DNA of 64,000 nt from Dehalococcoidia bacterium (GCA_965226775.1 CBDDEI010000002.1:2082467-2146466); one strand, 5' to 3'; shown: positions 5,091 to 32,461, numbered from the stretch's first letter. The notes: generated by a model from the letters alone, not told the origin. Numbers and translations: made by a program.

Positions 5091-5897
5091 ATGACGACGC
5101 CAAGCGGATCGCCTTCTTCAGACCTACCCGCTGGGCGGCTGCCCCATACGGTAACCACTGTGGAGACCGCCGCCGGCCTCATTAAGCCCCAACGTGTGGA
5201 TGTGGTCATCCCTGTGTACAACGAGGCGCACGTGCTGGCGGGAAGCATCGAGCAGCTGCGCGCCTTTCTCTCCGCTCACCTCCAGCCGCACCGGTGGCGC
5301 ATCGTCGTCGCAAACAACGCCTCCACCGACCACACGCTGGAAGTGGCCCAGCAGCTGGCCCAGACCTACCCAGAAGAGGTTGGCTACGTCCACCTCGACC
5401 AGAAGGGCCGCGGCAGAGCCCTCAAGCGGGCCTGGCTGGAGAGCGACGCCGACATCCTGAGCTACATGGACGTGGACCTCTCTACGGGGTTAGAGGCCTT
5501 CCCTTTGCTGGTGCAAGCCATCATCAACGGCTATGACGTTGCTACCGGCTCCCGGCTCATGCCGGAGTCCCAGACCAGCCGCTCCGCCAAGCGTGAGTTC
5601 ATCTCCCGCACGTACAATCTCATCGTCCGCCTCAGCCACGGATCTAAGGTTATCGATGCCCAATGCGGCTTCAAAGCCATCAGCCGCCCGGCGGTGCAGG
5701 ATCTAGTGCCCTTGGTGGAGAACAACGAGTGGTTCTTTGACACGGAACTCCTACTCTTGGCTCAGCAGCGCGGCTACACGATCAAAGAGCTCCCTGTCCG
5801 CTGGGTAGAAGACCCGGACACCCGTGTGAACATCCTCCGCACTGCCCTAGAAGACCTGCGCGGCCTAGTGCGTGTCCGCTTCCGCCCGCCCAAGTAG
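5091..5897 (+). CDS. Family 2 glycosyltransferase (polyprenyl-phosphate glycosyltransferase-like)
   Basis: VVIPVYNE...MDVDLS GT2 signature (DxD). Confidence 0.8.
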   Translation: MTTPSGSPSSDLPAGRLPHTVTTVETAAGLIKPQRVDVVIPVYNEAHVLAGSIEQLRAFLSAHLQPHRWRIVVANNASTDHTLEVAQQLAQTYPEEVGYVHLDQKGRGRALKRAWLESDADILSYMDVDLSTGLEAFPLLVQAIINGYDVATGSRLMPESQTSRSAKREFISRTYNLIVRLSHGSKVIDAQCGFKAISRPAVQDLVPLVENNEWFFDTELLLLAQQRGYTIKELPVRWVEDPDTRVNILRTALEDLRGLVRVRFRPPK

Positions 5898-6000
5898 CCC
5901 TCTCCACCTTCCGCCAGTCATCCGCTATTCTCAGGGTGCGCACGCGCCGTGTATACTCATGTCAAATAACAACCTCGTCTAGAAAGCGTTAGGTAACCCT

Positions 6001-7851
6001 ATGAACATCGTCGTTTGCATCAAGCAAGTGCCCAACGTGGCCCAGATCAAGTTCGACTCCGAAACCCGCACCCTCGTGCGAGAAGGCGTCACGCTCCAGC
6101 TCAACTCCCTGGATCGTCGCGCCATCACCCAAGCCATACGCTTGAAGGAAGCGCACGGTGGAACCGTTACCTTTATCACCATGGGCCCACCTCAGGCGAA
6201 ATCGGCGCTGGCCGAGGCTATGGCCACCGGCGGCGACCGCGCCATCCACCTCAATGACCGCGCCTTTGCTGGCTCGGACACCCTTGCCACTGCCCGAACG
6301 CTGGCAACCGCTATTAAGAAGCTGGATTACGACGTGATCATCTGCGGCCGCTTCACCAACGACTCCGAGACGGGCCAGGTAGGACCGGAAGTTGCCGAAC
6401 TCCTAGGTATACCGCACGCAACCAACGCCCGAACAGTGGAGTACGAGCCCGTCGGCGGCAAAATGCTCGTGACCCGGGAGATAGAGGAGGGTTGGGACAA
6501 GTGGGAGCTTGATCTGCCCTGTCTGTTCACTGCAGGCGAGTTCCTCATCCTCTCCATCCGTCCCAGCGCCGCGGAAGTTGAAGCCGCCATGGCCCAGGAA
6601 GTAGAGGTCTGGACTGCTGCCGATCTTGGTCTCTTGCCGGAAGAGGTAGGTCTAGCCGGCTCCCCCACTTCCGTCTCAGAGATTCGAGAGATGCACGTTG
6701 ACCGGCGCCAGCAGGTCGTTAGTGGCGCTAACCCGGAGCAGGCCGCCGGTCAAATGGTGGACTATCTCCTCAAAGAAGGCCTCTACACTCCCTGGCAACG
6801 CTCCATCGCATCGCTGCCGCCACGCGCTTCTGCTGCCGCACCGGGCACGGCACAAGCCGTCTGGGTAATCCCTGAACTAGCCCAAGGACAGATACGCGGC
6901 GTGACCTATGAGCTATTGAGCAAGGCGGCGGAGCTGGCGCAACGGCTTAACAGCGAAGTTGCTGCCGTCCTCATTGGCAACAACGTTAGCGCACAGGCGG
7001 AAGTCCTGGCTAGCTACGGCGCAGACCGGGTCTACGTAGCAGACCATCCTGATCTGGACCACTACCACACTCTGCGGTACACACAGGTACTGGCAGAGGC
7101 CATTGCCAGCCATAAGCCGTACGCCGTGCTCTTCCCCGCCAGCATCAACGGGCGGGACCTGGCCCCCAGGGTAGCCGCTCGCTTGGGCCTGGGCCTCACT
7201 GGCGACTGCATTGGCCTGGAGATCGATGACCAGCAGCGGCTAGTGCAGCTTAAGCCCGCGTTCGGCGGCAACATCGTGGCTCCCATCCTTACGCGCACCA
7301 CACCGGCTATGTGCACCGTACGCCCGGGCGTCCTGGACCGCCTGGCTCCGGCCTCAGGGCGAACAGCCGCTATCGAAGCGCTGTCCCTGGGCCAGTGGCA
7401 AGAGAACCACATGCGCCACCTTGGCCTTGAGCGCCTTCCCGGCGATGAGGGCCTCGCCTTAGAAGAGGCCGAGGCGCTGGTGGGTGTGGGCAACGGCGTG
7501 TCCCTCCCCGACGACCTGCCGCTCTTCCAGGAGCTGGCGCAGCTTGTAGACGGCAGCATCGCTACCACCCTACGAGTAGTAGCCAATGGGCAGCTGCCAG
7601 GGCCGTTGCAGGTGGGCCTCACCGGACGGTCGGTTGCCCCCCGCTTCTACATCACCTCAGGTATTTCAGGAGCGTTGAATCACTTAATCGGCGTTCAGAA
7701 GTCCGAGCACATCGTCGCTATCAACAACGATCCTGAAGCGCCCATCTTCAAGAGTTGCGACTTCGGCATCATTGGTGACTACAAGACGCTGGTTCCCGCG
7801 GTCATCGACCAACTGAAGGCCGCCAAGGCTGAATCCGGCAGGGCACACTAA
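6001..7851 (+). CDS. Fused electron transfer flavoprotein, beta subunit fused to alpha subunit (EtfB-EtfA single polypeptide)
   Basis: The N-terminal ~250 aa are EtfB-like (MNIVVCIKQVPN...). The C-terminal ~320 aa are EtfA-like, with the FAD signature YITSGISGALNHLIGVQKSEHIVAINNDPEAPIF. Confidence 0.85.
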   Translation: MNIVVCIKQVPNVAQIKFDSETRTLVREGVTLQLNSLDRRAITQAIRLKEAHGGTVTFITMGPPQAKSALAEAMATGGDRAIHLNDRAFAGSDTLATARTLATAIKKLDYDVIICGRFTNDSETGQVGPEVAELLGIPHATNARTVEYEPVGGKMLVTREIEEGWDKWELDLPCLFTAGEFLILSIRPSAAEVEAAMAQEVEVWTAADLGLLPEEVGLAGSPTSVSEIREMHVDRRQQVVSGANPEQAAGQMVDYLLKEGLYTPWQRSIASLPPRASAAAPGTAQAVWVIPELAQGQIRGVTYELLSKAAELAQRLNSEVAAVLIGNNVSAQAEVLASYGADRVYVADHPDLDHYHTLRYTQVLAEAIASHKPYAVLFPASINGRDLAPRVAARLGLGLTGDCIGLEIDDQQRLVQLKPAFGGNIVAPILTRTTPAMCTVRPGVLDRLAPASGRTAAIEALSLGQWQENHMRHLGLERLPGDEGLALEEAEALVGVGNGVSLPDDLPLFQELAQLVDGSIATTLRVVANGQLPGPLQVGLTGRSVAPRFYITSGISGALNHLIGVQKSEHIVAINNDPEAPIFKSCDFGIIGDYKTLVPAVIDQLKAAKAESGRAH

Positions 7852-7906: not shown

Positions 7907-8962
7907 GTGCCGGCATCTTCGCGCTGGTGGCGCTGCTCGTCCTCAGGCGGCCCTTCTAACGAGCCGGCCCCAAGCGTTGCGGCCGCTCCTGCGGCTCCCC
8001 TTGCCGCCACGGCGCTGAGCAATCCTCCTGAAGTCACAGAGGGCGGCGCAGGCCCCCTCCTCGCGCCGGACTACCAGGAGCCAGACCCTACGCCTGCACC
8101 ACCGCAAGCGCCCACGATACCGGACGTGGCCGCGGAGGCCTACATTGAGGAGGGTGCAGGCCCCATCCTCGTGCCGGACTACCAGAAGCCAGACCCTACG
8201 CCTGCACCGCCGGAAGCGCCCAAGCTACCGGGCGTGGTTGCGAAGGCCTACATAGTGGTGGACGCGGCAACGGGCGCCGTGCTGGCAGAGCATCAGGCCC
8301 ATCAGCGGCGTCCTGTCGCAAGCCTTACCAAGATCATGACTGCGCTCTTAGTGCTGGAGCAGGCTCGCCTCGATGAAGTCGTCACGGTAGACGATGCCAT
8401 AAGCAGGCTGTCTCGCCGCAGCACGGTTATGGGCGTTGTCCCTGGCGAGCAGCTTACGGTGCGTGACCTGCTCTATGGCATGATGCTCCCTTCTGGTAAC
8501 GACGCCGCGCTGGCGTTAGCTATCCATGTAGGCGGCGCCGAGAGCGCTTTTGTGGGCATGATGAACGAGCGCGCAGACGGGCTGGAGATGAAGAACACCC
8601 ACTTCGCCAACTCTCATGGCCTGGATTCCCGTCGCGGCAACCACTACAGCAGCGCCTACGACCTCTCCCTGCTGACCCGCGTCGCCATGGAGAACGCTAC
8701 CTTCCGGGAGATCGTGGCGACCTACTCATGGAGCGCCCAGGGACTGCTGCAACCCTACGGCTTGTACAACCGCAACTCACTGATCAACAGGTACGCTGGA
8801 GCAGATGGTGTGAAGATTGGCTACACCCGCCGCGCCGGCCAGACCATCGTCGGCTCTGCGGTGCGCAAAGAAACACGCCTGCTGGCCGTTGCGTTAGGCA
8901 GCACCCAGTCCATTACCGACGCCATTCGTCTGCTGGACTTTGGGTTTCAGCAACCTCCCTAG
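7907..8962 (+). CDS. D-alanyl-D-alanine carboxypeptidase (serine type, PBP5/DacF-like) with a Pro-rich N-terminal tether. The probable authentic start is GTG 7879, in another frame (frameshift about 7945-7960).
   Basis: SLTKIMTAL (SxxK), SGND and KIGYT motifs. A ~25-aa internal tandem repeat (EGGAGPLLAPDYQEPDPTPAPP). The short ORF 7879..7959 encodes the TM anchor VAKGWFFLGCAGIFALVALLVLRRPF and is preceded by a GGGAG RBS. Confidence 0.8.
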   Translation: MPASSRWWRCSSSGGPSNEPAPSVAAAPAAPLAATALSNPPEVTEGGAGPLLAPDYQEPDPTPAPPQAPTIPDVAAEAYIEEGAGPILVPDYQKPDPTPAPPEAPKLPGVVAKAYIVVDAATGAVLAEHQAHQRRPVASLTKIMTALLVLEQARLDEVVTVDDAISRLSRRSTVMGVVPGEQLTVRDLLYGMMLPSGNDAALALAIHVGGAESAFVGMMNERADGLEMKNTHFANSHGLDSRRGNHYSSAYDLSLLTRVAMENATFREIVATYSWSAQGLLQPYGLYNRNSLINRYAGADGVKIGYTRRAGQTIVGSAVRKETRLLAVALGSTQSITDAIRLLDFGFQQPP

Positions 8963-9150
8963 CTCCTCTGAACACGTTGCGCCGCCAACGACCTCCGCCA
9001 ATCCGGCTTCCCGCTCTGCCTCGTTGTCGTATGTGGCAGCAAGCCGCGCGCTCCTGTACCTGGCAGCGCGCTCCTGTAAGCGCCGGCAACGCTACGCCCC
9101 GTAAGCTGCTATCCAGGCTGTGACACGATGCCGACCGCTGCTCTCGCTTC

Positions 9151-9179
9151 TTGTAGCCGTGCTGCCAAGCTGATACAAT
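9151..9179 (+). promoter_or_regulatory. Near-consensus sigma70-type promoter for tRNA-His (TTGTAG-N17-TACAAT)
   Basis: -35 at 9151-9156 and -10 at 9174-9179, about 36 nt upstream of the tRNA. It is absent from the duplicated copy. Confidence 0.45.
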
Positions 9180-9214
9180 ACCTATGCGCCCGCTTCTAGC
9201 GGGCACCATTGCGC

Positions 9215-9291
9215 GGTGGGCGTAGCCGAGTGGTTAAGGCGCCTGGTTGTGGCCCAGGAGAACGTGGGTTCGAACCCCACCGTCCACCCCA
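9215..9291 (+). tRNA. tRNA-His (anticodon GTG), with G-1 and encoded CCA
   Basis: Cloverleaf by hand: acceptor GTGGGCG/CGTCCAC, G-1 opposite C73, anticodon loop TTGTGGC, T-arm GTGGGTTCGAACCCCAC. Confidence 0.85.
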
Positions 9292-9350
9292 TTCTCCCCT
9301 AGAGAGTGCTCCTCCTACACAAACTTCCCCAACATCCCCAGCAACAAACA

Positions 9351-9383
9351 GCCGCCGCGAGCATGGCTCGCGGCGGCTTTGTT
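9351..9383. terminator. Bidirectional rho-independent terminator between tRNA-His (+) and the binding-protein gene (-)
   Basis: GCCGCCGCGAGC-atgg-CTCGCGGCGGC followed by TTTGTT. It is palindromic, with a T/A tract on both sides. Confidence 0.75.
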
Positions 9384-9431
9384 CTAGCGGTCTGATGAGG
9401 AGAGTAACCTCCTCTCAGCTGCGCCTAGTTG

Positions 9432-11192
9432 CTATTTGTCTATCCATGCATTGATCGTTGAGTAGCCTTGATCCAGGTGCGCGGTATAGTTCTTCACGTA
9501 AGGATGCCAGAAGAACGCATTAGGAGACCGGGCAATGGCAATTCCAAATGCCTCCTGATTGATGTAGGTGATTGCCTCTTTCATGATCGCCTGACGCTTC
9601 GTCGGATCACCCTCTCGCCGCTGCGCCTCAATGAGCCCCTTGAGTTTGTCGTCTTTCACACTCGTGTAGTTAAGACGCTGGTCGGGGTAGTAGTATCCGT
9701 ACAGGCTGTAGTCCGCATCTGGGCGTGGGTACTCTCCAAACCAGTGCATCTCAAACAAGCCCTTCTTCCGGTCTCGAGAAACTTCTGCACGGGGCCGCAC
9801 ATCAAACTCTACTGTAATCCCCACCATTTTGAGTTGGGCTTGCAATAGCTGCGCAAGGGAGCGCTCTTGATCGGTCCCTAAGTCTGTCAACAACGCGTAT
9901 GTGAAGCCATTTGGATAGCCAGCTTCGGTAAGGAGTTGCTTCGCCTTTTCCCGGTCAAAGGGCTGTAATGCCTTTATCTCTTCTTGCGTAAAGATGTCCA
10001 CAAAGGTGTTGGCGCCCGCCAACCCATACGTTCCGCCGCCTATAACCTTAATGAATTCATCGCGATCGATGGCCAAGGAGATGGCCTTACGCACCAGCTG
10101 ACTTTGGAAGGGCTCAAACAGATAGTTCATCAGCACGTAGCGGGGGGTGCCGGGGAAATCGTGGCGGAGCGCCTCAGGGTTCTGAGCTGCCAAGTCCTTG
10201 ATCCCCTGGCCGCTGGACGAGTTCATGACATCTAGCTGTCGCGTTTGGAATGCCGCAAATGCGGTCGCATCCTCCGGCAACACCAGGTAGCGAATGTCGT
10301 CTAAGTAGATTGAGTCCGCATCCCTATAGGTGGGGTTTTTCGTGAATACCGCTCTGGTACCCTTTTGGGTATCCGCCTCACTGTGTTGGAAGGGGCCAGT
10401 ACCCACAATATTCGTGGAAAAGTCCCCCTCAAGCTTCAAGAGCTCTTTCGGGTAGATGGGGTTGAACGCGCTGCTCGCATAAATTAAGAACGGCGCGAAC
10501 CCATCCTCGAACTTGACCACTACGGTGTAGTTGTCCGGCGTTGTGATGCTCTCAAGTCCGGCCCACATGAACCCGTTCTGGCTGGCCTTAAGATCGGAGA
10601 AGTCACCGGTGCTGGAAGTATAGTGATAGCTCCACTTCACATCCGCAGCGGTGAGCTCACGGCCGTTAACGGGAGCTATGTTGGCATACTTCACGCCCTT
10701 CTGGAGGTAAAAGGTAAAGGTCTTGGCATCGGCTGAAACCTCCCACCTCTCCGCCAGCTCCGGCGCAACGGTCTTATCGAAGTAATTAATGTTCGGATAA
10801 GGTGTTACCACTTGCTGTAGGAGACTGTCGTATGCAAGTCGGATGCCGTTGACATTGTTGGAATTCTGCCCGTTTATCCGCATATTCCAGTCTGTCATGT
10901 CCGTGGTGTTCCGAATCCTGAGCGTACCCCCGGTCTTCGGCTTTCCCATTGCATCGCCCTCGGTCTTCGCCATTGCGTCGTCCGTCTTGGGCTTCGCCAT
11001 AGCGTCGCCGCTCTCGGTCTTCGCCATTGCGTCGTCCGTCTTGGGCTTCTCCATTGCATCGCTGCTCTCGGTCTTCGCCGTTGTAGCGCTGCTACTAGAC
11101 GCAGCTGGCTGTGCGGGCGCGGCGGGGGCCGCGCAGGCTAGCGCGATCATCATAGAAGCGATCACTAGATAAAACACTGGCTTGAAATACAT
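9432..11192 (-). CDS. ABC transporter substrate-binding lipoprotein, family 5 (DppA/OppA/NikA-like), copy A
   Basis: Likely start ATG at 11190-11192 with a GGAGGA RBS (MYFKPVFYLVIASMMIALAC lipoprotein signal). DAMAKPKT tandem repeats, then a family-5 binding-protein domain. ORF-track start 11219 is upstream and in frame. Confidence 0.85.
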   Translation of the reverse strand: MYFKPVFYLVIASMMIALACAAPAAPAQPAASSSSATTAKTESSDAMEKPKTDDAMAKTESGDAMAKPKTDDAMAKTEGDAMGKPKTGGTLRIRNTTDMTDWNMRINGQNSNNVNGIRLAYDSLLQQVVTPYPNINYFDKTVAPELAERWEVSADAKTFTFYLQKGVKYANIAPVNGRELTAADVKWSYHYTSSTGDFSDLKASQNGFMWAGLESITTPDNYTVVVKFEDGFAPFLIYASSAFNPIYPKELLKLEGDFSTNIVGTGPFQHSEADTQKGTRAVFTKNPTYRDADSIYLDDIRYLVLPEDATAFAAFQTRQLDVMNSSSGQGIKDLAAQNPEALRHDFPGTPRYVLMNYLFEPFQSQLVRKAISLAIDRDEFIKVIGGGTYGLAGANTFVDIFTQEEIKALQPFDREKAKQLLTEAGYPNGFTYALLTDLGTDQERSLAQLLQAQLKMVGITVEFDVRPRAEVSRDRKKGLFEMHWFGEYPRPDADYSLYGYYYPDQRLNYTSVKDDKLKGLIEAQRREGDPTKRQAIMKEAITYINQEAFGIAIARSPNAFFWHPYVKNYTAHLDQGYSTINAWIDK

Positions 11193-11302
11193 CAAGTTCC
11201 TCCTTGTTCTCGGGGACAACCCACTCTTCAGCCACTGGCAAGGCCGCGGCTAAAGGAACCGCAACGTTTGTCCCTTACGTTGTACTTGAGATGCTAGTGC
11301 AG

Positions 11303-11333
11303 ATACATGAGTAATTCATGACGTGTTCATGAG
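11303..11333 (-). promoter_or_regulatory. Three direct TCATGA(A) repeats at 11-bp phasing upstream of binding-protein gene A (candidate response-regulator operator)
   Basis: aCATGAg, TTCATGA, TTCATGA at 11304, 11315 and 11326. An AACGT-N9-ACGTT palindrome lies nearer the gene. The same pattern is conserved in copy B. Confidence 0.35.
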
Positions 11334-11360
11334 AATTATCACGATCGGGCGCCATTGCGC

Positions 11361-11436
11361 GGTGGCCGTAGCCGAGAGGTTAAGGCGCATGGTTGTGGCC
11401 TAGGAGAACGTGGGTTCGAATCTCACCGTCCACCCA
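11361..11436 (+). tRNA. tRNA-His(GTG)-like second copy, probable pseudo-tRNA
   Basis: Same anticodon loop, but a C5-U68 mismatch in the acceptor stem, an A-G mismatch in the anticodon stem, a D-loop change and no upstream promoter. Confidence 0.55.
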
Positions 11437-11498
11437 TTCTCCCCCTGAGAGTGCTTCTCCTGCACCAAGCTTCCCCAACATCCCCAGTAATATAGAAA

Positions 11499-11532
11499 GC
11501 CGCCGCGAGCATAGCTCGCGGCGGCTTTCTTC
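11499..11532. terminator. Duplicated bidirectional terminator hairpin
   Basis: GCCGCCGCGAGC-atag-CTCGCGGCGGC TTTCTTC. Confidence 0.7.
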
Positions 11533-11578
11533 TAGCGGTCTGACGAGGAGATTAACCTCCCCTCATCTGCGCCTAGTG

Positions 11579-13339
11579 CTATTTGTCTATCCATGCATTG
11601 ATTGCTGGGTAGCCTTGATCCAGGTGCGCAGAATAGTTCTTCACGTAAGGATGCCAGAAGAACGCATTGGGAGACCGGGCAATGGCAATGCCAAACGCCT
11701 CTGTATTGATGTAGGTGATTGCTTCCTTCATGATCGCCCGACGCTTCGTCGGATCACCCTCTCGTCGCTGCGCCTCAATGTACGTCTTCAGCTTATCGTC
11801 TTTCACACTCGTGTAGTTAAGACGCTGGTCGGGGTAGTAGTATCCGTACAGGCTGTAGTCCGCGTCTGGGCGACCGTACTCGCCGAACCAGTGCATCTCA
11901 AACAAGCCCTTCTTCCGGTCTCGAGAAACTTCTGCACGAGGCCGCACATCAAACTCTACTGTAATCCCCACCGTTTTGAGCTGGGCTTGCAAGAGCTGCG
12001 CAAGGGAGCGCTCTTGATCGGTCCCTAAGTCTGTCAACAATGCGAATGTGAAGCCATTCGGGTAGCCAGCTTCAGTAAGGAGACTCTTCGCCTTTTCCCG
12101 GTCAAAGGGCTGTAATGCCTTTACCTCTTCTTGCGTGAAGATGTCCACAAAGGTGTTGGCGCCCGCCAACCCATACGTTCCGCCGCCCATAACCGTAATG
12201 AATTCATCCCGATCGATGGCCAGGGAGACGGCCTGACGCACTAGCTGACTTTGGAAGGCAGGAAACTGATAGTTCATCAGTACGTAGCGGGGAGTGCCGG
12301 GGTAATCTTGGCGGAGCGCCTCAGGGTTCTGAGTTGCCAAGTCCTTGATCCCCTGGCCGCTGGACGAGTTCATGACGTCTAGCTGTCGCGTTTGGAATGC
12401 CGCAAATGCGGTCGCATCCTCCGGCAACACCAGGTAGCGAATGTCGTCTAAGTAGATTGAGTCCGCATCCCTATAGGTGGGGTTTTTCGTGAATACCGCT
12501 CTGGTACCCTTTTGGGTATCCGCGTCACTGTGTTGGAAGGGGCCAGTACCCACAATATTCGTGGAAAAATCCCCCTCAAGCTTCAAGAGCTCTTTCGGGT
12601 AGATGGGGTTGAACGCGCTGCTCGCATAAGTTAAGAACGGCGCGAACCCATCCTTGAACTTGACCACTACGGTGTAGTTGTCCGGCGTTGTGATGCTATC
12701 AAGCCCGGCCCACATGAACCCGTTCTGGCTGGCCTTAAGATCGGAGAAGTCACCGGTGCTGGAAGTATAGTGATAGCTCCACTTCGCGTCCGCAGCGGTA
12801 AGCTCACGGCCGTTAACGGGAGCTATGTTGGCATACTTCACGCCCTTCTGGAGGTAGAAGGTGAAGGTCTTGGCATCGGCTGAAACCTCCCACCTCTCTG
12901 CCAGCTCCGGCTCAATGGTCTTGTCAAAGTAGTTAATGTTCGGATGAGGTGTTTCCCTCTGCTTTAAGAGACTGTCGTATGCAACGCGGATGCCGTTGAC
13001 ATTGTTGGAATTCTGCCCGTTTATCCGCATATTCCAGTCTGTCATGTCCGTGGTGTTCCGAATCCTGAGCGTACCGCCAGTCTTCGGCTTCCCCATTGCA
13101 TCGCCCTCGGTCTTCGCCATTGCGTCGTCCGTCTTGGGCTTCGCCATTGCGTCGCCGCTCTCGGTCTTCGCCATTGCGTCGTCCGTCTTAGGCTTCTCCA
13201 TGGCATCGCTGCTCTCGGTCTTCGCCGTTGCAGCGCTGCTACTAGACGCAGCTGGCTGTGCGGGCGCGGCGGGCGCCGCGCAGGCTAGTGCGATCATCAT
13301 CGAAGCGATCACTAAATAAAACACTGGCTTATATTGCAT
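11579..13339 (-). CDS. ABC transporter substrate-binding lipoprotein, family 5, copy B (about 90% identical to copy A)
   Basis: Likely start ATG at 13337-13339 with a GGAGGT RBS (MQYKPVFYLVIASMMIALAC). Same architecture as copy A. Confidence 0.85.
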   Translation of the reverse strand: MQYKPVFYLVIASMMIALACAAPAAPAQPAASSSSAATAKTESSDAMEKPKTDDAMAKTESGDAMAKPKTDDAMAKTEGDAMGKPKTGGTLRIRNTTDMTDWNMRINGQNSNNVNGIRVAYDSLLKQRETPHPNINYFDKTIEPELAERWEVSADAKTFTFYLQKGVKYANIAPVNGRELTAADAKWSYHYTSSTGDFSDLKASQNGFMWAGLDSITTPDNYTVVVKFKDGFAPFLTYASSAFNPIYPKELLKLEGDFSTNIVGTGPFQHSDADTQKGTRAVFTKNPTYRDADSIYLDDIRYLVLPEDATAFAAFQTRQLDVMNSSSGQGIKDLATQNPEALRQDYPGTPRYVLMNYQFPAFQSQLVRQAVSLAIDRDEFITVMGGGTYGLAGANTFVDIFTQEEVKALQPFDREKAKSLLTEAGYPNGFTFALLTDLGTDQERSLAQLLQAQLKTVGITVEFDVRPRAEVSRDRKKGLFEMHWFGEYGRPDADYSLYGYYYPDQRLNYTSVKDDKLKTYIEAQRREGDPTKRRAIMKEAITYINTEAFGIAIARSPNAFFWHPYVKNYSAHLDQGYPAINAWIDK

Positions 13340-13457
13340 TAAGCACCTCCTAAGTTCTTGGGATAACCCACTCTTCAGCCACAGGCAAGGCCGCGGCTGA
13401 AGAAACCGCAACGTTTGTCCCTTACGTTTACGTTGTAATTGAGATGCTATTGCAGAA

Positions 13458-13485
13458 ATATGAGTAATTCATGATGGATTCATGA
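13458..13485 (-). promoter_or_regulatory. TCATGA(A) phased direct repeats upstream of binding-protein gene B
   Basis: aTATGAg, TTCATGA, TTCATGA at 11-bp spacing. An AACGT...ACGTT palindrome is also conserved. Confidence 0.35.
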
Positions 13486-13632
13486 GAAATAGTAAGAGCG
13501 GCACTTTACCACACTTAACCACGCCTACCTCACTATAGCGTCATTGGGAACTCATGCGGCCCTAATCTAATGACCTTACAGTCCTAGCACCTGTACTTAC
13601 GAGCAGCATAGAGTAAGAAGGAGGTAGCCACA

Positions 13633-15507
13633 ATGAGTACTAAGGCATGGCTAGTAGCCCTGTCCATCAGCGCACTGCTGGTAAGTGCCTGCACTGCGGC
13701 CACACCCGCGGCGCCCGCTGAAACCAGCGGGTCCACGAGCAGCGGCGCCAGTAGCAGCAGCGACACCAGTAGCAGCACCAGTGGTACGAGCGACACCAGC
13801 AGCAGCACCAGTGGGACCAGCGACACCAGCAGCAGCACGAGCACCACCAGCAGCCCTAGCGCGACTCCTGTCCCCGCTGCCAGCAGTAGCAGTAGCACGA
13901 CCAGCACCACGGGCAGCGGCGAAACCAAGAAGGAAACCGGCGAAGCCGCAAAAGCCGAACAGGTGATGAAAGACACCGCCGGCAGCTCGGACGTCGTATG
14001 TGAAGAAGGCAAGGAGTCCTGGCGCTCCCCCGGTCCCCCCGTCCGCGGCGGCAGCCTTGTCTGGGCTACTTCGCCCGTCAGCCATCTCGAGAGCGGCGGC
14101 GCGTTCCAGGTCTACAACAGCCTGCTCCAAGAGCGTAAGTGCTTCGTCACCGACCGCGTCATCGTCCCCAGTCTCGCGAAGTCCTGGGAGGTCTCCCCTA
14201 ACGGCTTGACCTGGACCTTGAAGCTCAACGACAACGTGAAGTGGCAGAATATGCCCCCGGTCAACGGCAGAGCCTTCGACTCCTCCGACGTGGCCTGGAT
14301 GATTGACTACCAGAAGGAAAAAGGACGCGAGCGCGTCTGGTGGGAACACGTCAATTACACCACCCCAGACAAGTACACCATCGTCCTGACCCTTACCCGC
14401 CCTGACCCCGACTTTGTCTACAAGCTGGGGGCCGGCGCTAACCTCATGAAAGCCAAAGAGGTCTTTGAGCAGGACGCCGGCTTCCGCAAAACCGCCGTCG
14501 GCACCGGCGCCTATATGGCGCATGACTGGAAGACCGGCCAAGGCGTCACCGGCGTTAAGAATCCCGACTACTGGGAGACGGGCGCAGACGGCAAGCCTCT
14601 CCCCTACCTCGATGAGATCAAGAAGGTAGCTTTCGGCGATATCGCCGCGGAGTTGGCCGCAATGCGGGCCGGACAAACGCACCATCCCGGCACCTTTGGC
14701 TTCCGCCCCGACATGCTGAAGATCCTACGAGATAGTGATCTGAAGCTGACCTTCTACGACATCCTCCCTCCCATCCATGGCGCCGTGTGGTTCGATACTA
14801 CTTCTGCGCCCTGGAACGATAAGCGGGTGCGCCAAGCCACCCTGAAGTCCATCGACCGGGAATCGCTCATCATCTCCTTGCAGGGCGGCGTTGTTCACTC
14901 GGGCTATGTACCCGGCCCCTTTACCGATGCGGCCTGGTCTGAAGCAAAGACGATTGAGAAGTTCGCTCAGGACATCCCTGCCGCCAAGAAGCTCTTGGCC
15001 GAAGCCGGCTACGACGGCAGTGGCCCCCCCGCCAAGATGACTACCACCGGCCAGTATGCCCAAGAAGCCGAAGTGGTCCAAAACTTGATGAAGAAAGCTG
15101 GCTTCAACGTGGAGCTCGAGGTCGCGCCTGACCGCTCCTGGACCACCACCATGCGGAAGTTGAAGTTCGAGATCGGCTGGGGCGTCGCGGGAGGCTCCAT
15201 CACAGAGTTCCCGGTCTACTACCTCTGCCAGCTGGTGACCGATAACCCTCTGAACACAACTCGGTACGGTGATGCCACCATCGATAACCTGTGCGGAACC
15301 CAGGCCGTTGAGCTAGACCCCGCAAAGCGCAAGGCTATCTGGGATCAGCTCCAGGACCACCTCTATGACGTAGTGCCTTACGTGCCCACGGTCGGCACCA
15401 TCTACGGCATGGCTTTGGCCTGCGAAGTCAAAAACTACAAGCGTGTCCACACCGGCCGCAATCCCTCCGGATTCGTCCGGGCCTGGCTCGACAAGACCGG
15501 CTGCTAA
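13633..15507 (+). CDS. ABC transporter substrate-binding lipoprotein, family 5, with a Ser/Thr-rich tether
   Basis: Strong AAGGAGG RBS. LLVSAC lipobox. The DTSSSTSGTS tandem repeat is followed by a family-5 binding-protein domain. Confidence 0.85.
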   Translation: MSTKAWLVALSISALLVSACTAATPAAPAETSGSTSSGASSSSDTSSSTSGTSDTSSSTSGTSDTSSSTSTTSSPSATPVPAASSSSSTTSTTGSGETKKETGEAAKAEQVMKDTAGSSDVVCEEGKESWRSPGPPVRGGSLVWATSPVSHLESGGAFQVYNSLLQERKCFVTDRVIVPSLAKSWEVSPNGLTWTLKLNDNVKWQNMPPVNGRAFDSSDVAWMIDYQKEKGRERVWWEHVNYTTPDKYTIVLTLTRPDPDFVYKLGAGANLMKAKEVFEQDAGFRKTAVGTGAYMAHDWKTGQGVTGVKNPDYWETGADGKPLPYLDEIKKVAFGDIAAELAAMRAGQTHHPGTFGFRPDMLKILRDSDLKLTFYDILPPIHGAVWFDTTSAPWNDKRVRQATLKSIDRESLIISLQGGVVHSGYVPGPFTDAAWSEAKTIEKFAQDIPAAKKLLAEAGYDGSGPPAKMTTTGQYAQEAEVVQNLMKKAGFNVELEVAPDRSWTTTMRKLKFEIGWGVAGGSITEFPVYYLCQLVTDNPLNTTRYGDATIDNLCGTQAVELDPAKRKAIWDQLQDHLYDVVPYVPTVGTIYGMALACEVKNYKRVHTGRNPSGFVRAWLDKTGC

Positions 15508-15621: not shown

Positions 15622-16461
15622 ATGAATTCACCAGAGCCAGGAGAGTGGCTGACGGAGTTGCGGGCCCTTTACGATAACGCCTTCAGTTACGATTGGGACC
15701 GGCACGTTGACCAACTCAATAAGCGGTATAAATTACACGGCAGCAGTAAGTTGGGCCTGCTGGTGCGTGGTCAACCACCTGCATGGTTTAACGGCGATGT
15801 AGAAGCTATCCAGCCGGACCGCTGGGTGTTGGTTGTCTCGCTAAGTCATCAGCTACCTAGCCAAGACCTCGAAGACCATGTACCCGATAGTTCGTGGCAA
15901 GCGTGTTGTCACAACAATGCCAGCTCAGTCATACAATATCCGCAGTTTTTCACGCGAGCGGCAGAACTTGCTGCTACGGCCCTGGAACACGAACACCTAC
16001 AACCAGAGGGGCCTCAGCTAACTGCGAAGGACCTAGTGTTTACCCAAATGTGTCCCTATACCTTCGGACGATTTGAGCCGCCTTTAAGCACAATCAGGAC
16101 AGTGGTAAGACGCGATATAGGCTGTCTTACCGCCGCATCAGTCGGGAGAATCCTCGTAGAGAAGGCCAGGCCCAAACTCATACTCGTCAACGGTAGTCCT
16201 ACCGTGCTTGAGTTTGACGCCATCTACGGCAGCAACCTTTCCTGGGAGGAAAAGCAGTACCCTTCAGAGAGCCACCCGCACCTAAAGCTATGGCACAGGG
16301 AGGGGTATTGGAAAACAGAGCAGGGCGCTATACCAGTAGTAGGAATCCCTCTCTTGGGCACCCAAGGAAGCCATGACTCTGCACTTGAACGCAAACAGCT
16401 GAACGCAGCAATACGAGAACTAGTTGCCTATCCGGTTGCTGCCTCCAACCTTAGCCCGTAG
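15622..16461 (+). CDS. Hypothetical protein in a compositionally atypical (low-GC) segment
   Basis: 279-aa ORF. By eye the GC is about 50% against about 63% in the flanks. No confidently recognisable domain. Confidence 0.55.
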   Translation: MNSPEPGEWLTELRALYDNAFSYDWDRHVDQLNKRYKLHGSSKLGLLVRGQPPAWFNGDVEAIQPDRWVLVVSLSHQLPSQDLEDHVPDSSWQACCHNNASSVIQYPQFFTRAAELAATALEHEHLQPEGPQLTAKDLVFTQMCPYTFGRFEPPLSTIRTVVRRDIGCLTAASVGRILVEKARPKLILVNGSPTVLEFDAIYGSNLSWEEKQYPSESHPHLKLWHREGYWKTEQGAIPVVGIPLLGTQGSHDSALERKQLNAAIRELVAYPVAASNLSP

Positions 16462-16587
16462 CATCTGCTTCCATACACCACCTACGGCGTAAACCCCTTC
16501 TGTGCTGGCCGAGCTGGCAGCAGCCTCAAGTTGCTGCTCAGACGAGCACCATACTAGCCGCTCAGTCTGCTACAATTTATTCGCCGT

Positions 16588-16663
16588 GCGCCCGTAGCTC
16601 AACGGATAGAGCATCAGACTTCGGATCTGAGGGTTGGGGGTTCGAGTCCCTCCGGGCGTACCA
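16588..16663 (+). tRNA. tRNA-Arg (anticodon TCG)
   Basis: Acceptor GCGCCCG/CGGGCGT (G1-U72), D-arm GCTCAACGGATAGAGC, anticodon loop CTTCGGA, T-loop TTCGAGT, CCA encoded. Confidence 0.8.
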
Positions 16664-24620: not shown

Positions 24621-26005
24621 TCCGCTACCCGAAACGCCTCGAACTCGGTCAACGCTTCGTCCCAGCCCTCCCGCGTCTCCGACCCGATAGCGTCGGCGGC
24701 GCGGTAACCCATGTAGAGTGAGTGATGGGTGTTGTTGTGCAGGAACAGCCCCTGACGGCCAACCAGCCACAGGTTCCGGAAACCCTCCATCCACGCCATC
24801 ACTGTCTTCATTGACTCCTGATAGGTGAGGTCATAGATGGGGTAGACCTGGCTAAAACGGCGGCTGAACACCTCCTCCACCTCATCGGCGGCAACCAGCC
24901 CAGCCTCGTGCAGCGCGGGCAGCACGTACTGTAGCAGGTCGGCGTCGGAAGCCGAGATGATATCGCTATCCGGGTTGCAGGGGATGTCTAGGCAGAGCAC
25001 CGTGTTGCCGGCAGGGCTCATGCGAGGGCTGAACTTCTTGAACTCCACCGCTCGGTTAAAGGGGAACTGGGGCTCGGGAAAATAGTAGGTATCGGCATCA
25101 CCCACGTTTGGTTTGTTGAGCGCCAGGTAGAGGAGCACCACCGCGCGGTAACGCAGGTTGCCCACGGCCTCCCGCACCTCATCCGGCGGCGCAGGAGTCA
25201 TGCGTCGCACCAGCTCCGGCAGGGGCGCGCTCCAGATGCAGTGGCCCGCGGCCGCCTCCTGCCGCAGCCCGCGCGCCTCGTAGCGCACCGCGACCACCTG
25301 GTCCTCCGACCACACCACTTCCTGCACCGAGGCGGCGCGCTCTATGGTGACGCCATCCATACCTTCCAACGCCTGCTCGTAGGCTGCGGGGATCTGCCCA
25401 AAGCCGCCCTGGGGGTAATAGTATGTCGCCGGCGCGCCCCTGCCCGCAGCGGCCCGGAGCAGATCAGTAAAGCCGCGCTGGTTCACCCGCCGCTCCGCCT
25501 GGGCCACGGCGATCTGACTGCCCGGGAGACCCCAGGTTTTCTCCGCGTAGGGGCCGTAGAAGAGGTCGTAGAGGGGTCTGCCCAAGCGGCGCACCAGCAA
25601 CGCTTCGTAGCTGCCCGCCGGGCTGGAGTTACCCTGCGCCTTCGCAAGTGCAATGCCAGCGGTGAGGGCCGCGAGTCTGGGAATCCCCAAACTGAGGGCA
25701 GCACGCGGCCCCAGCGGATAGGGTACGTAGCGGCCTGCGACTCGAATCTTACCGTGACGCGTGCGCTGAACAAGGTCTTGTCCGAGCAGCAGTTGGAGGT
25801 CGCGCAGGACGTCCGGAGCCAGCTCTGTATGGAGACGGTGGGGCCCAAAGTCCAGGATGTAGTCTTTGTGCCGGAACCCGGCGGCCAGGCCCCCTAGCAC
25901 CGGCGCTCGTTCCAGTAGCAACGAGCCGACGTCCCAGCGTTGCGCGAGGCGGTAGGCAGCAGCCAGTCCTGCCGGCCCTCCGCCCACGATCACTACCGAG
26001 GCCAC
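24617..26005 (-). CDS. FAD-dependent oxidoreductase, UDP-galactopyranose-mutase / amine-oxidase superfamily
   Basis: N-terminal VVIVGGGPAGLAAAY dinucleotide-binding motif. YAEKTWG and YYPQGGFG resemble Glf motifs. Confidence 0.55.
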   Translation of the reverse strand: MASVVIVGGGPAGLAAAYRLAQRWDVGSLLLERAPVLGGLAAGFRHKDYILDFGPHRLHTELAPDVLRDLQLLLGQDLVQRTRHGKIRVAGRYVPYPLGPRAALSLGIPRLAALTAGIALAKAQGNSSPAGSYEALLVRRLGRPLYDLFYGPYAEKTWGLPGSQIAVAQAERRVNQRGFTDLLRAAAGRGAPATYYYPQGGFGQIPAAYEQALEGMDGVTIERAASVQEVVWSEDQVVAVRYEARGLRQEAAAGHCIWSAPLPELVRRMTPAPPDEVREAVGNLRYRAVVLLYLALNKPNVGDADTYYFPEPQFPFNRAVEFKKFSPRMSPAGNTVLCLDIPCNPDSDIISASDADLLQYVLPALHEAGLVAADEVEEVFSRRFSQVYPIYDLTYQESMKTVMAWMEGFRNLWLVGRQGLFLHNNTHHSLYMGYRAADAIGSETREGWDEALTEFEAFRVAD

Positions 26006-26032
26006 ACCGTCTTGCTATAAGAGAAAAGGGGG

Positions 26033-27505
26033 CTAAGCACTGCTTTGTGCTCTGGCACGCAACCACCGGTGGCTGTAGATCATTCCTGCGCACAGGAGAA
26101 GCCAGAACCCAGTCAGGATCCAGGTGCGGGGCTCGTAGCTGGTGTAGAAGGGATACGCCTGGGCCAGTAGCCGGAAGGGCTCCCAGGCCAGGGCAAAGGG
26201 GTCCACTACGAGCACCACATCCTCCGCCGCCGCCTCTGCATACAGCGCGCGAGTAATGAGCAGCGTATACAGCCCCAGCACCGCGGCGCTCCCCATCCAC
26301 AGCGCCGAAACCTGCACCCGGGAGAGCGTCCATGCCAGGAGCGGCGCGAGCAACGGCAGCACGACAATGAGCATGCGGCCGGGGAACCACCAGCCGCGCA
26401 TCGTCAACGATAAGAAGGCGGCAACCAGCACTTGCGTCACCAACAGCAGCGCGAGGGTCCAGCGCACGCGAGGAGGCTGTCTGAGGAGCCACGGCACGGC
26501 CGGCAGCGCGAGCAGCAGGACTGGCGTCCACCGCAGCACACCAAACTCGCCATCGAACCACAGCCCTGCCAGCCTGTAGAGACGCTCCCACAGTACAAAG
26601 TGGCTGCCCACCAGCTCCAGGGTATCCTTGCCGGCGTACAGCACGTTCACCACGTAGGGCGTCAACCCGCCGTAGGTCGCCAGGTGGAACCAGGCGTAGC
26701 CCATGCCCGTGACCGCTGTGCCCAAGAGGAACGGCCCGCGCAGACCGGCCGGCATACGCGCCAGGGCGATGAGCCCGGCTACCGCACCCACCAGCAGGTA
26801 CTTGCTGCCCAGCCATGCCAGACCGTTGAACGCGAGCAGCAGCAGCAACGCGCCGCGCCAACCCAAGCGAGGCTGCACCAGGATAAGCGTCGCAAGGACG
26901 AGGCAGAGGGCGGCAGGCATCTCCGGATAGACCTGCGTGCTGTAGACAAAGAGGGGGGCGCTGAGCCCCAGCAGCCCAGCCGAGATAACGGATGCGCCGA
27001 GGTTCCCGGTGATGCGATAGGCAAGGAGCATCATGCCCGCCGCGGTCAGGCCGCCGATAAGTCCCAGGAACCCCTTAGCCGCATCGACGCCGCCCAGCGC
27101 GTAGGCCGGCGCGATGAGCAGCGGCAACCCCACGTTGTGCGGGGAGAGGATGCGCCCCTGCGCGTCCGGCGCAGATTGATGCCATAGCGGCTGGGAATGA
27201 TCATAGTACGCGGTGTAGCGCTTCAGCTCGTAGTCGTTGCGGAGGTCTAGGTCGCCGTCCTCTAATAGGCTCACCGTAGTCAGCAGATAAAAGGGTTCGT
27301 CCGCCGTGACGCGTGCGCCGTGGCTGGCCCGCAGGGGCACGCCCCACTGGTAACACCATGCCAGCACAACCGCCAGCAGGAGCGCCGTACACACAACGGG
27401 AAGCGTGAGCCTCCCAACTTCACCCCGCTGCGTAGCCTGGGATTCGGCGCGGCGTTGCAGCAACCCTGCCAGGCCCGAGCGCGCGCCGGCCAGCGTCGTG
27501 CTCAC
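26033..27505 (-). CDS. Multi-pass membrane glycosyltransferase-like protein (GT-C fold, ArnT/PMT/DUF2029-like)
   Basis: More than ten predicted TM helices. An acidic first loop (DEPFY...EDGDLDL). Probable start GTG at 27503-27505, overlapping the stop of the upstream GT2 gene. The first ~100 aa of the track ORF overlap that gene and are treated as non-coding. Confidence 0.5.
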   Translation of the reverse strand: MSTTLAGARSGLAGLLQRRAESQATQRGEVGRLTLPVVCTALLLAVVLAWCYQWGVPLRASHGARVTADEPFYLLTTVSLLEDGDLDLRNDYELKRYTAYYDHSQPLWHQSAPDAQGRILSPHNVGLPLLIAPAYALGGVDAAKGFLGLIGGLTAAGMMLLAYRITGNLGASVISAGLLGLSAPLFVYSTQVYPEMPAALCLVLATLILVQPRLGWRGALLLLLAFNGLAWLGSKYLLVGAVAGLIALARMPAGLRGPFLLGTAVTGMGYAWFHLATYGGLTPYVVNVLYAGKDTLELVGSHFVLWERLYRLAGLWFDGEFGVLRWTPVLLLALPAVPWLLRQPPRVRWTLALLLVTQVLVAAFLSLTMRGWWFPGRMLIVVLPLLAPLLAWTLSRVQVSALWMGSAAVLGLYTLLITRALYAEAAAEDVVLVVDPFALAWEPFRLLAQAYPFYTSYEPRTWILTGFWLLLCAGMIYSHRWLRARAQSSA

Positions 27506-29744
27506 GGCTCCAGTAGCTCCTGGGCCATCGCGGGGATCACCCGCCGCAGATACTCGCGGTAGCGGATGAAGGAGCGTCCATGGGAACGCAGTTGGTAGGA
27601 CACGGGAGTCTGGCTCAACCGCATCCCTTTGCGGAGCAGGTCCAGGGTGAGCACCTGCGCGTAATTGTAGTCGTGGCGGATCTCCGCCAAGGCCAGCGCC
27701 CGCGCGCTGAAGGCCCGATATCCTGTCTGGCCGTCCTGCAACCGCTTGCCTGTTAGCAGGGAGACCAGCAGCGTGAATGCACGGTTGCCCAATTTGCGAG
27801 ACCAGCACATGACGCCGTTCGCGCAGGGAAAGCGGGAGCCTAGCACGTAGTCGGCGTCCCCGTGCAGCACCGGCTCCAGCACCGCAACCATATCAGCGGG
27901 GTCGTACTCGCCGTCGCCATCCAGATAGACTACTGCGCCCGCGCCCCGTGCAGCGCCGCGGTCAGGCCGGTCCGCAGCGCTGCGCCGACGCCCTGCCGCG
28001 TATCGTGGCGCACCACCACGTCGGCTCCTGCGGCGCGCGCCACGGTGCCCGTGTCATCGGTAGAGCCGTCGTCCACTACGATGACCCGCACGCTGTATCC
28101 CATCGCACTTAGGGCGGCGCGGGGCACACCGGAGACCACCCGTCCGACCGCAGCGGCTTCGTTAAGCGCGGGAATCACTACAGCAACCCAGTTGCCTGCA
28201 GGAAGCGGCGCAGCGGCGGGCAGCGGGTGGTAAGAGAGCCACCACTGCCGCAGCAACACAATAGCGGCTAATGCTGCCATGCCAAAAAGCAGCGCCTCTC
28301 CAGGGCGGGACGCTCCGAGGAGGATGCTTTGAGCGGTCAGTGTAGGCCACAGCGCTCCCACGAGTGTTGCGCCCACGGCTGTACGCTGCCCCAGCGCCAA
28401 TGCGCCGGCAATACCTAGCCCAAGTGCAATACCGCTAGCTGTCAGGGAGAACACCCCAAAGAGCGCCACGAAAGCCAGCGGGACCAAGAGCAGCACGGGC
28501 AATGCCCGCAAGGGCAGGTGGTGGGTCTTGCCCAGCAACGCCAGCGGCAGTGTGGCCGCCAGTCCTGGCAGCAGCGTCCAGCCGTGCTCCGGCAGCGCCA
28601 CTATGAGCGCAGCAGCCAATGCCACCAGGATGCCGTGGTCGACGTAGCGACTCAGCGGCAATGAGCTAGTACGCCATCGCTGCAACAACTCCTGGGCCCA
28701 CGGCAGCCGCCAGCTAGCGGGCAAGCTGCCAGAGGCTGCTCTTGGCACGAGTTGCCCCAGCAACGCAAACGCACCGCCCTCAAAAGCGCAGCTAACGGCG
28801 CCGGTTGCGTAGGAGTAGACAAACTTGAGGCCGTGGGTGGATAGCGCAAGGGCAAGGGCCACTGTGGGGTCTACCCCGAAGAGGGTTAGTCCTCCCGCCT
28901 GGGCAACCTCGTAGACGCCCAAACCGCCGGGGGTTACCTGCACCGTCTGGAAGAGGATAGTAAACGCAGTGACCGCCACCGCTGCCTCAAAGGCTAGGGG
29001 CACACCGCCAGCCTGGGCTACCACCCAGAGCACCGTGCCTTCCAGCACCCAGCTCGGCAGCACCAACGCCCAGGCCAGGGCGACGCGGGGCGCTTCCAGC
29101 CCTTTAGCAAAGTCCGCCAGTATGCTCAACAGCCGTCGAAAGCGGCCTAAACGGCTCAGCAGCAGCGCGCCGCCCAGGGCAGCAACTGCGGCGATTCCCG
29201 TCACGCCGCCCAGCAGCGCCACTTGGGGCGAATCCAGGCCGGTCAGGAGCGCGGTAGCGACAAGAGCGAGGCCAAGCACCGCACCCAGGTCCAGCAACCG
29301 GGCCAGCACGGTGGTGCTAGCCGCTATAGGCAGCGCAATGCCTCGGCCTGCCAGGAGCACGATACGCAGCGGCTCGCCGACCTTAATAGGAAAGAGGTGG
29401 TTGGCGAGCAGCGAAATATGCAGGATGGCGAGCAGATGGAGAGTCTGACCCCCGTTGCGGCCCAGCAAGACCCGCCACGCCCAGGCCCGCAGCAGGAACG
29501 CGCCGCCGTAGCCCGCAAGGAAGAGCGCCAGCCACTGGGGCGTGAGCGAAAGGCCGCTGATGGTCGCCAACACCTGTGCGCTAAGGGGAGAGTAGGACAG
29601 CGAAAGGAGGAGAAGGAGGAGCGCGCCCGCCGTGCAAACCAGGCTAAGGACGCTCCAAGAGGCCCGCCCCTGCAGCGACCGCTCTGCGCGCTGACCCAGT
29701 TGCGCCGCATAGTTGAGACTGGGCTTGGGAAGACTCTGCTGCAT
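27502..29744 (-). CDS. UPF0104 (flippase-like / lysylphosphatidylglycerol-synthase TM domain) fused to a GT2 glycosyltransferase; interrupted by an apparent 1-bp frameshift at the CCCC run 27944-27947
   Basis: ORF 27930..29744 holds the TM domain plus the GT2 N-part (VVIPALNE...DDGSTDDT). ORF 27502..27891 holds the GT2 C-part (DADYVLGSRF...). Removing one C restores AALHGAGAVVYLDGDGEYDP. Confidence 0.7.
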
Positions 29745-29770
29745 GCTAGCCTCGGGTGTGAACGGAGCGA

Positions 29771-30829: not shown

Positions 30830-30835
30830 ATTGGT

Positions 30836-32449: not shown

Positions 32450-32461
32450 GACTAGCTCGTG

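Follow-up and report, generated by a model that had tools for sequence, protein, structure and literature searches.

Tandem duplication of a tRNA-His gene and a family-5 binding-protein gene has left a decaying second tRNA copy in an uncultured Chloroflexota lineage

Families of family-5 solute-binding proteins (SBPs) are very large in Chloroflexota, and paralogous members of this group (cluster C) can share one Opp/Dpp-type translocator, as seen for MppA with Opp in Escherichia coli and for the multiple OppA genes of Borrelia. In experimental evolution of Pseudomonas fluorescens SBW25, tandem duplications raise the number of tRNA gene copies, and these duplications are 45-290 kb long, recent, unstable and selected for dosage (PMC7661048, PMC10954465). 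Tandem duplication followed by random loss, as modelled for organelle (mitochondrial) genomes, leaves tRNA pseudogenes, one copy of each duplicated gene being lost (PMC4223735), and in prokaryotes, additional tRNA calls with low scores mostly represent 3' or 5' fragments at the boundaries of integrating elements (PMC9897764). In this study, we analysed a 64-kb stretch of DNA from a Dehalococcoidia bacterium (GCA_965226775.1, CBDDEI010000002.1:2082467-2146466; hereafter the window), in which a head-to-tail duplication of 2.15 kb carries a tRNA-His(GTG) gene, a terminator hairpin and the gene of a family-5 SBP lipoprotein. It is very probable, in our judgement, that after this tandem duplication the binding-protein copies were kept by selection and the promoter-less second tRNA copy was left to drift.

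Like the SBW25 duplications, the present one is a head-to-tail copy of a whole tRNA gene plus neighbouring genes, but it spans just 2.15 kb, is old and has become fixed in the species, with the SBP gene as the apparently selected cargo and with a tRNA copy that is promoter-less and decaying. As under the duplication/random-loss model, one tRNA copy has degenerated to a recognisable pseudogene between retained genes; however, only the tRNA copy decays here, purifying selection having kept both copies of the protein-coding gene. The locus resembles the tRNA fragments of integrating elements in having, near a canonical gene, a lower-scoring tRNA-like sequence that automated annotation can miscount, and differs from them in that the copy is full-length with its leader, no integrase is present and the duplication is local and segmental. 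With the MppA and Borrelia OppA sets it shares several SBP_bac_5 lipoprotein genes standing side by side without a permease or ATPase of their own, whereas here no equivalog ligand assignment was obtained and no translocator of this type was found in the 64 kb. The locus is a new example of known processes rather than a new kind of system, and current understanding is unchanged by it.

The two units and the genes on which the account rests are given below, with positions counted from the first nucleotide of the window.

9200-11345 (one alignment ends at 11338), no strand: duplication unit 1, from self-alignment and BLAST
11346-13501 (one alignment ends at 13491), no strand: duplication unit 2, from self-alignment and BLAST
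9151-9179, + strand: candidate promoter of tRNA copy 1, TTGTAG-N17-TACAAT, read from the sequence, outside the duplicated unit
9215-9291 (ARAGORN body 9216-9291), + strand: tRNA-His(GTG) copy 1 with encoded G-1, from ARAGORN and Rfam RF00005
11361-11436 (ARAGORN body 11362-11435), + strand: tRNA-His pseudogene, copy 2, from ARAGORN, Rfam and population data
9432-11192, - strand: SBP1, family-5 solute-binding lipoprotein of 586 amino acids (aa), PF00496 E 9.5e-72
11579-13339, - strand: SBP2, paralogous family-5 solute-binding lipoprotein of 586 aa, PF00496 E 3.3e-70
13633-15507, + strand: SBP3, distant family-5 paralogue matching PF00496, divergent from SBP2 and outside the duplication

Repeat finding and local self-alignment of the window gave two head-to-tail units with a period of 2146-2147 nt and 93.4% identity (1996 matches, 140 substitutions and 7 small insertions or deletions (indels)), and unit 1 searched by BLAST against the whole window returned exactly one further full copy and nothing else. 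Both analyses bear out the tandem duplication of about 2.15 kb that had been reported in a first-pass annotation of the window, whose boundaries (9203, 11349 and 13495) lie 3-6 nt from those re-measured here. The order of parts claimed there (tRNA, terminator, convergent SBP gene, upstream region) was likewise found in both units: a tRNA-His(GTG) gene on the + strand, a long G+C hairpin, a second smaller hairpin, a convergent SBP gene on the - strand and about 150 nt of SBP upstream DNA. The unit boundary falls about 15 nt 5' of the tRNA, and the other end lies about 160 nt upstream of the SBP start codon.

For comparison with related genomes, six independent metagenome contigs from six samples were taken from ENA: L001, L002 (1.7 Mb), L003, L004, L085 and L086. 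The flanking genes (purF, purH, an electron-transfer flavoprotein (ETF) gene, an S11 peptidase gene, SBP3, a gene for a 279-aa protein and others) are 97-99% identical in DNA between these relatives and the window, and the window and the six contigs form one species-level population. The same two-unit arrangement is carried by all six; four of them (L002, L004, L085 and L086) run from the S11 peptidase gene through both units to SBP3, with the same junction, and the short contigs L001 and L003 break within the repeat. In an alignment of 14 units, unit-1 copies were 95-99% identical between strains and unit-2 copies 91-99%, against 90-94% for any unit 1 compared with any unit 2. Because unit-1 copies group across strains, and unit-2 copies do likewise, the duplication predates the split of these strains; it is old and fixed in the species, in agreement with the earlier view that the event was not recent.

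The first tRNA copy is probably the working tRNA-His gene. It scored 67.1 bits against RF00005, as did every copy 1 across the relatives, and the alignment held standard pairs in all stems with no non-canonical pair, so the intact stems described before are confirmed. ARAGORN placed its GUG anticodon in a 7-nt loop, and G-1 at 9215, C73 and the CCA at 9289-9291 are read directly from the sequence; an encoded G-1 opposite C73 is an identity element for histidyl-tRNA synthetase. Copy 1 was identical in all six genomes that hold it, with 0 of 76 sites variable as against 15 of 140 in the adjacent spacer (Fisher p = 0.0015), which shows it to be under absolute constraint. Both hexamers of its candidate promoter are identical in L001, L002, L004, L085 and L086. 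The promoter proposed earlier is thus conserved among relatives, but its description as near-consensus overstated the match, which holds at only 3/6 and 5/6 positions, and a consensus promoter scan of 8900-13700 on both strands called zero promoters, including upstream of copy 2.

Scored in the same way, copy 2 of the window reached 47.6 bits, with two non-canonical pairs flagged by Rfam, one in the acceptor stem (C5-U68) and one in the anticodon stem (A28-G42), the two mismatches that copy 2 had been said to have gained. Further changes are G30-U40 and G52-U62 wobbles in the anticodon and T stems, a T-to-A change in the D loop and the loss of one C from the C73-CCA run, which leaves either C73 or the CCA incomplete; G-1 (11361) and a GTG anticodon in a 7-nt loop are retained. 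Across seven genomes copy 2 occurs as seven distinct alleles (Rfam 43.8-53.6 bits), whose lesions differ from strain to strain and fall at positions normally conserved in tRNAs. T54 and/or T55 are altered in six of the seven (L001, L002, L003, L004, L085 and L086, not the window), a D-loop G is changed in L001, the D loop of L003 carries an insertion, L085 and L086 share a 1-base deletion that leaves a 6-nt anticodon loop, their copies being called 'tRNA-???' by ARAGORN, and L001, L085 and L086 carry changes in the 3' acceptor strand.

In the six genomes where unit 2 is complete, 13 of 74 sites of copy 2 are variable, with a nucleotide diversity (pi) of 0.078, compared with 22 of 138 sites and a pi of 0.079 in the adjacent spacer (p = 0.85 for copy 2 vs spacer); the value is also comparable with that of the third codon positions of SBP2 (0.089), and the two tRNA copies differ sharply in variable sites (p = 6e-5). 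The divergence of copy 2 from copy 1, about 7-10% per site, lies entirely on the copy-2 branch and is approximately that predicted from one branch of the synonymous divergence (dS) between the paralogues. Since the diversity of copy 2 equals that of the spacer and of SBP2 third positions while copy 1 is invariant, we identify tRNA copy 2 as a pseudogene whose decay proceeds at the neutral rate and has not yet erased it, and the decay first suspected from the window is thereby borne out across strains. With the unit boundary about 15 nt 5' of the tRNA (about 12 in the earlier estimate), copy 2 did not inherit the promoter region of copy 1, as had been proposed.

The binding-protein genes have fared differently from the tRNA. 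SBP1 and SBP2, whose starts were taken as the ATG following a good AGGAGG ribosome-binding site (11192 for SBP1), are 93.7% identical in protein with 37 amino-acid differences, a closer match than the about 90% stated before. All three SBPs match PF00496 (SBP_bac_5) over the full length (242.6 bits for SBP1, 237.5 for SBP2 and 197.7 for SBP3; cut-off 32.4), and the presence of a third, more divergent family-5 gene at 13633 was substantiated, with 28% identity between SBP3 and SBP1. Signal peptide and lipobox were read from the translations as MYFKPVFYLVIASMMIALAC in SBP1 and SBP2, ending in IALAC, and as ...ALLVSAC in SBP3, the lipobox being judged by eye against a PROSITE-type rule. Between SBP1 and SBP2 of the window, the ratio of nonsynonymous to synonymous divergence was 0.22, with a dS of 0.16 (0.21-0.25 outside a central tract), and population diversity at codon positions 1, 2 and 3 was 0.023, 0.015 and 0.050 in SBP1 and 0.038, 0.017 and 0.089 in SBP2. 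Their reading frames are intact in all contigs of adequate quality, that of SBP2 in L002, L003, L085 and L086; in L004 (2x coverage) frameshifts occur in all three SBP genes alike, and other genes of this contig are also broken. SBP1 and SBP2 are both under purifying selection of similar strength, and the binding-protein gene is supported as the retained cargo of the duplication.

The ligand of these proteins was not assigned by NCBIfam, in which no equivalog reached its cut-off (best about 100 bits against cut-offs of 393-1005), and the nearest solved structures were generic peptide, nickel, opine and heme binders of DppA, NikA, OppA and AccA type (E 7e-35 or weaker). Pfam scans of the main open reading frames (ORFs) of at least 150 aa in the 64 kb, covering most of those not nested in another gene, found no Opp/Dpp-type permease or ATPase. 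The sole ATP-binding cassette system found, at 29771-33487, pairs a TOBE-type ATPase with a fused permease, has a binder of its own of SBP_bac_1/6/8 type, and is a complete and unrelated system of iron/polyamine type. The SBPs had been termed orphans, and this stands in so far as no such partner lies in the 64 kb, but the label is valid for this window only; the partner permease and ATPase may be located elsewhere in the genome. A literature search on orphan SBPs in Chloroflexi found nothing specific.

Two further kinds of feature lie within the SBP genes.

10201-10700, with its partner at about 12349-12848 in unit 2, no strand: gene-conversion tract of about 500 bp, from the paralogue identity profile
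10933-11083, - strand: 27-nt (9-aa) tandem repeats in the SBP1 linker (DAMAKPKTD / DAMAKTESG), from TRF with period 27/54
13080-13231, - strand: 27-nt linker repeats of SBP2, from TRF

In the tract at 10201-10700 the paralogues are 97-99% identical in the window, L004, L085 and L086, compared with 90-93% on either side, whereas in L002 they are only 91% identical there, and within the tract unit 2 of the window is 98% identical to unit 1 of L002. This pattern is the mark of gene conversion from unit 1 to unit 2, after unit 2 of L002 had diverged. The locus had been presented as a clean example of gene-family expansion; the duplication itself is confirmed, but the picture is blurred by this tract of about 500 bp. 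In both SBP1 and SBP2 the N-terminal linker is made up of the 27-nt (9-aa) tandem repeats, and SBP lengths range over 569-586 aa among strains, in some cases differing by exactly 9 aa, which suggests a change in the copy number of the linker repeat. The linker of SBP3 is instead Ser/Thr-rich and built from 9/15/30-nt repeats (13719-13910).

The DNA between and upstream of the genes holds the following features.

9350-9378, both strands: bidirectional intrinsic terminator between the convergent tRNA copy 1 and SBP1, from terminator call and fold
9387-9422, - strand: second hairpin, directly 3' of the SBP1 stop codon, from minimum-energy and centroid folds
about 11494-11530, no strand: terminator hairpin, copy 2, from inverted repeat and fold
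11193-11345, - strand: upstream region of SBP1, in which three CATGA motifs recur every 11 nt (11304-11333), from motif search

The terminator of unit 1, called on both strands, has a 13-bp stem with 11 G-C pairs and is T-rich on both strands; the region 9340-9430 folds at -53 kcal/mol (z-score -6.3). Folds of the hairpin in unit 2 gave -47.8 and -55.6 kcal/mol (z-scores -5.4 and -8.6), so that the GC-hairpin terminator reported for the units is substantiated in both, and the second hairpin is duplicated with changes at about 11533-11570. An Rfam search of the region for other RNA families returned only sub-threshold chance matches to the terminator hairpin (sodF sRNA (small RNA), CrfA and mir-486). 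The CATGA motifs, with a spacing of 11 nt (TTCATGA-N4-TTCATGAG), occur at 11304-11333 and 13468-13486, 110-140 nt 5' of the start codons of SBP1 and SBP2. The motif pair is restricted to the two units within the window (0.04 expected by chance) and is largely conserved among relatives; it may be an operator for some regulator.

We propose that in an ancestor of this Chloroflexota species the order would have been promoter, tRNA-His, bidirectional terminator and, on the opposite strand, a single binding-protein gene, and that a single event of illegitimate recombination or slippage would have duplicated 2.15 kb head-to-tail. Unit 2 would thereby have gained an SBP gene with its own upstream region and terminator, and on this proposal SBP2 would therefore have been expressed from birth and presumably kept as a receptor, additional or slightly diverged, for a remote importer of Opp/Dpp type, with gene conversion from SBP1 acting on it occasionally, as seen in the tract described above. 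The second tRNA would have landed behind the upstream region of SBP1 without the promoter of copy 1, redundant and probably silent, putatively dead on arrival through promoter loss, and it has drifted at the neutral rate since the duplication.

Several observations weigh against this history. No outgroup with a pre-duplication single unit was found in protein searches, GTDB representatives or JGI metagenomes, so both the order of genes before the duplication and the way in which the event ran are inferred. With SBP1 as query, a protein search gave four near relatives (84-97% identity) and then nothing above 53%, and with the S11 peptidase it gave relatives at 94-96% and then at most 59%, while look-ups of the exact SBP1 and peptidase sequences of the window returned no record; among GTDB species representatives, identity to the S11 peptidase was at most 53% (at most 50% beyond fragment matches), in Chloroflexota/Dehalococcoidia metagenome-assembled genomes (MAGs). 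A tRNA-His beside the peptidase was found at 0 of 54 loci scanned in GTDB representatives, an exact search for copy-1 tRNA in JGI metagenomes gave 0 matches, and the locus of an SBP with 50% identity (P0006) had no tRNA in its context. The nucleotides shared by the three boundary sequences, at most 3-5 nt of CGG/AGCGG, are too short a microhomology to tell from chance. The candidate promoter of copy 1 is only a moderate match and, like the DNA upstream of copy 2, went uncalled by the consensus scan, and transcription of copy 2 from a promoter that escaped recognition is conceivable. In the window, copy 2 still has G-1, the GTG anticodon and an undamaged T-loop and scores above the Rfam gathering threshold, and with these features it may have some residual function in this particular genome. 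Finally, several of the relative contigs are of low coverage (2x-6x), so some single-strain differences could be read errors; no such noise appears in copy 1 or in the coding regions of the low-coverage contigs (though the SBP genes of L004 are frameshifted).

If both tRNA-His copies were functional, copy 2 would be a variant or low-expression isodecoder serving dosage or a special role. ARAGORN still types it as tRNA-His(GTG) in the window and in L001-L004, every copy-2 allele lies above the Rfam gathering score of 29 bits, and adaptive gain of tRNA dosage through tandem duplication is known (PMC7661048, PMC10954465). However, the diversity of copy 2 is that of neutral DNA, its seven alleles carry differing lesions of stems, T-loop and anticodon loop while copy 1 is invariant, and no promoter-like site lies upstream of it, so we regard a second working tRNA-His as very unlikely. 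It is just as improbable that copy 2 is maintained as something other than a tRNA, be it a part of the regulatory region upstream of SBP1, an antisense element or insulator between the SBP2 terminator and the SBP1 promoter, or a decoy target for an integrase. A tRNA-like sequence does persist undeleted in every strain and adjoins the conserved CATGA-repeat region upstream of SBP1, but no segment of copy 2 is conserved beyond the surrounding spacer, some 75 nt of neutral DNA can persist this long without selection, and no integrase or mobile-element gene is nearby.

Neither the integration of a mobile element nor faulty assembly accounts for the repeat itself. Because tRNA genes are common targets and integration makes partial, non-canonical tRNA copies (PMC9897764), unit 2 might have come from an element or island inserted at tRNA-His, with the two tRNAs as its attL/attR repeat. 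The repeat nevertheless spans the whole tRNA and about 15 nt of 5' leader rather than merely a 3' segment, the supposed cargo is an end-to-end, 93%-identical copy of the neighbouring unit, and no integrase, excisionase or transposase is found in or beside the units, Pfam scans having detected no integrase or transposase domain in 0-24 kb of the window. An integrative origin is extremely improbable and was rejected, the entire tRNA being duplicated and no integrase being present. An assembly artefact, either an expansion or two strain haplotypes joined in tandem, could be suspected from the breaks of the L001 and L003 contigs in the repeat, which indicate a region that is hard to assemble. Against this, 140 substitutions and 7 indels separate the units, unit-specific differences are common to several strains, and the two units stand together, joined at the same junction, on four contigs obtained independently from different samples; expansion is excluded by the 6.6% divergence of the units together with these spanning contigs, and we consider the chance of an artefact negligible. 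An old tandem duplication followed by decay of the promoter-less tRNA copy remains our reading of the locus.

Automated annotation would list two tRNA-His genes here, of which only one is constrained, and counts of the tRNA gene set and inferences on codon usage for this lineage should use one. The locus also offers a natural control: a single genome holds an ancestral sequence in two copies, of which one has stayed frozen while the other drifts at the synonymous rate, and this gives an internal yardstick of the neutral rate. A boundary 15 nt from a gene can decide the fate of that gene. In addition, the locus shows a family-5 SBP family growing by small local duplication, purifying selection and patchy gene conversion.

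Within the same strains, polymorphism is higher in unit 2 than in unit 1, with a third-position pi of 0.089 vs 0.050 and an upstream-region diversity of 0.118 vs 0.060, and unit 2 of L002 is only about 92% identical to the other unit 2s, compared with 98% for the flanking genes of L002. This excess suggests deeper coalescence or imported DNA. There is only a slim chance that unit 2, including copy 2, is kept polymorphic by a cause other than drift, for example balancing or diversifying selection on a surface receptor under phage or ligand pressure, with the tRNA remnant perhaps acting in recombination or regulation instead of being pure junk.

The closest matches among named relatives and in GTDB are Chloroflexota/Dehalococcoidia MAGs, with about 40-50% protein identity (53% over a single fragment of 150 residues), and on these protein matches the lineage belongs to Chloroflexota, probably near Dehalococcoidia, and is probably an undescribed lineage of genus rank or higher. 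It is thinly represented in the collections searched, identity for two proteins dropping from about 95%, in ENA metagenome assemblies only, to below 60%.

Several neighbouring loci also deserve mention. Directly downstream of SBP3, the gene at 15622-16461 encodes a predicted cytoplasmic protein of 279 aa with about 99% DNA identity in relatives and no Pfam or NCBIfam match. Between this gene and a tRNA-Arg(TCG), L002 carries an extra 371-aa gene (5537-6652; HSDR_N / HSDR_N_2, restriction-enzyme-like) that is missing at the matching site in the window (16461-16588), L003 and L004, an indel polymorphism next to a tRNA gene. On the other side of the duplication, the gene for the S11 D-Ala-D-Ala carboxypeptidase contains, in its 5' part, a 108-nt tandem direct repeat (8039-8254; two copies, 86% identical), and calls of this gene vary over 272-400 aa among relatives. 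Further away, 26001-30000 has a high G+C content (0.66) and a strongly positive AT skew (+0.22 to +0.26); a 591-aa ORF with no Pfam match lies at 26033-27808 on the - strand, and 27930-29744 encodes a fusion of LPG_synthase_TM with a glycosyltransferase. The ETF at 6001-7851 is a single ORF of 616 aa with two ETF domains and ETF_alpha, an apparent beta-alpha fusion, and it is kept as one ORF in L001, L002 and L004.

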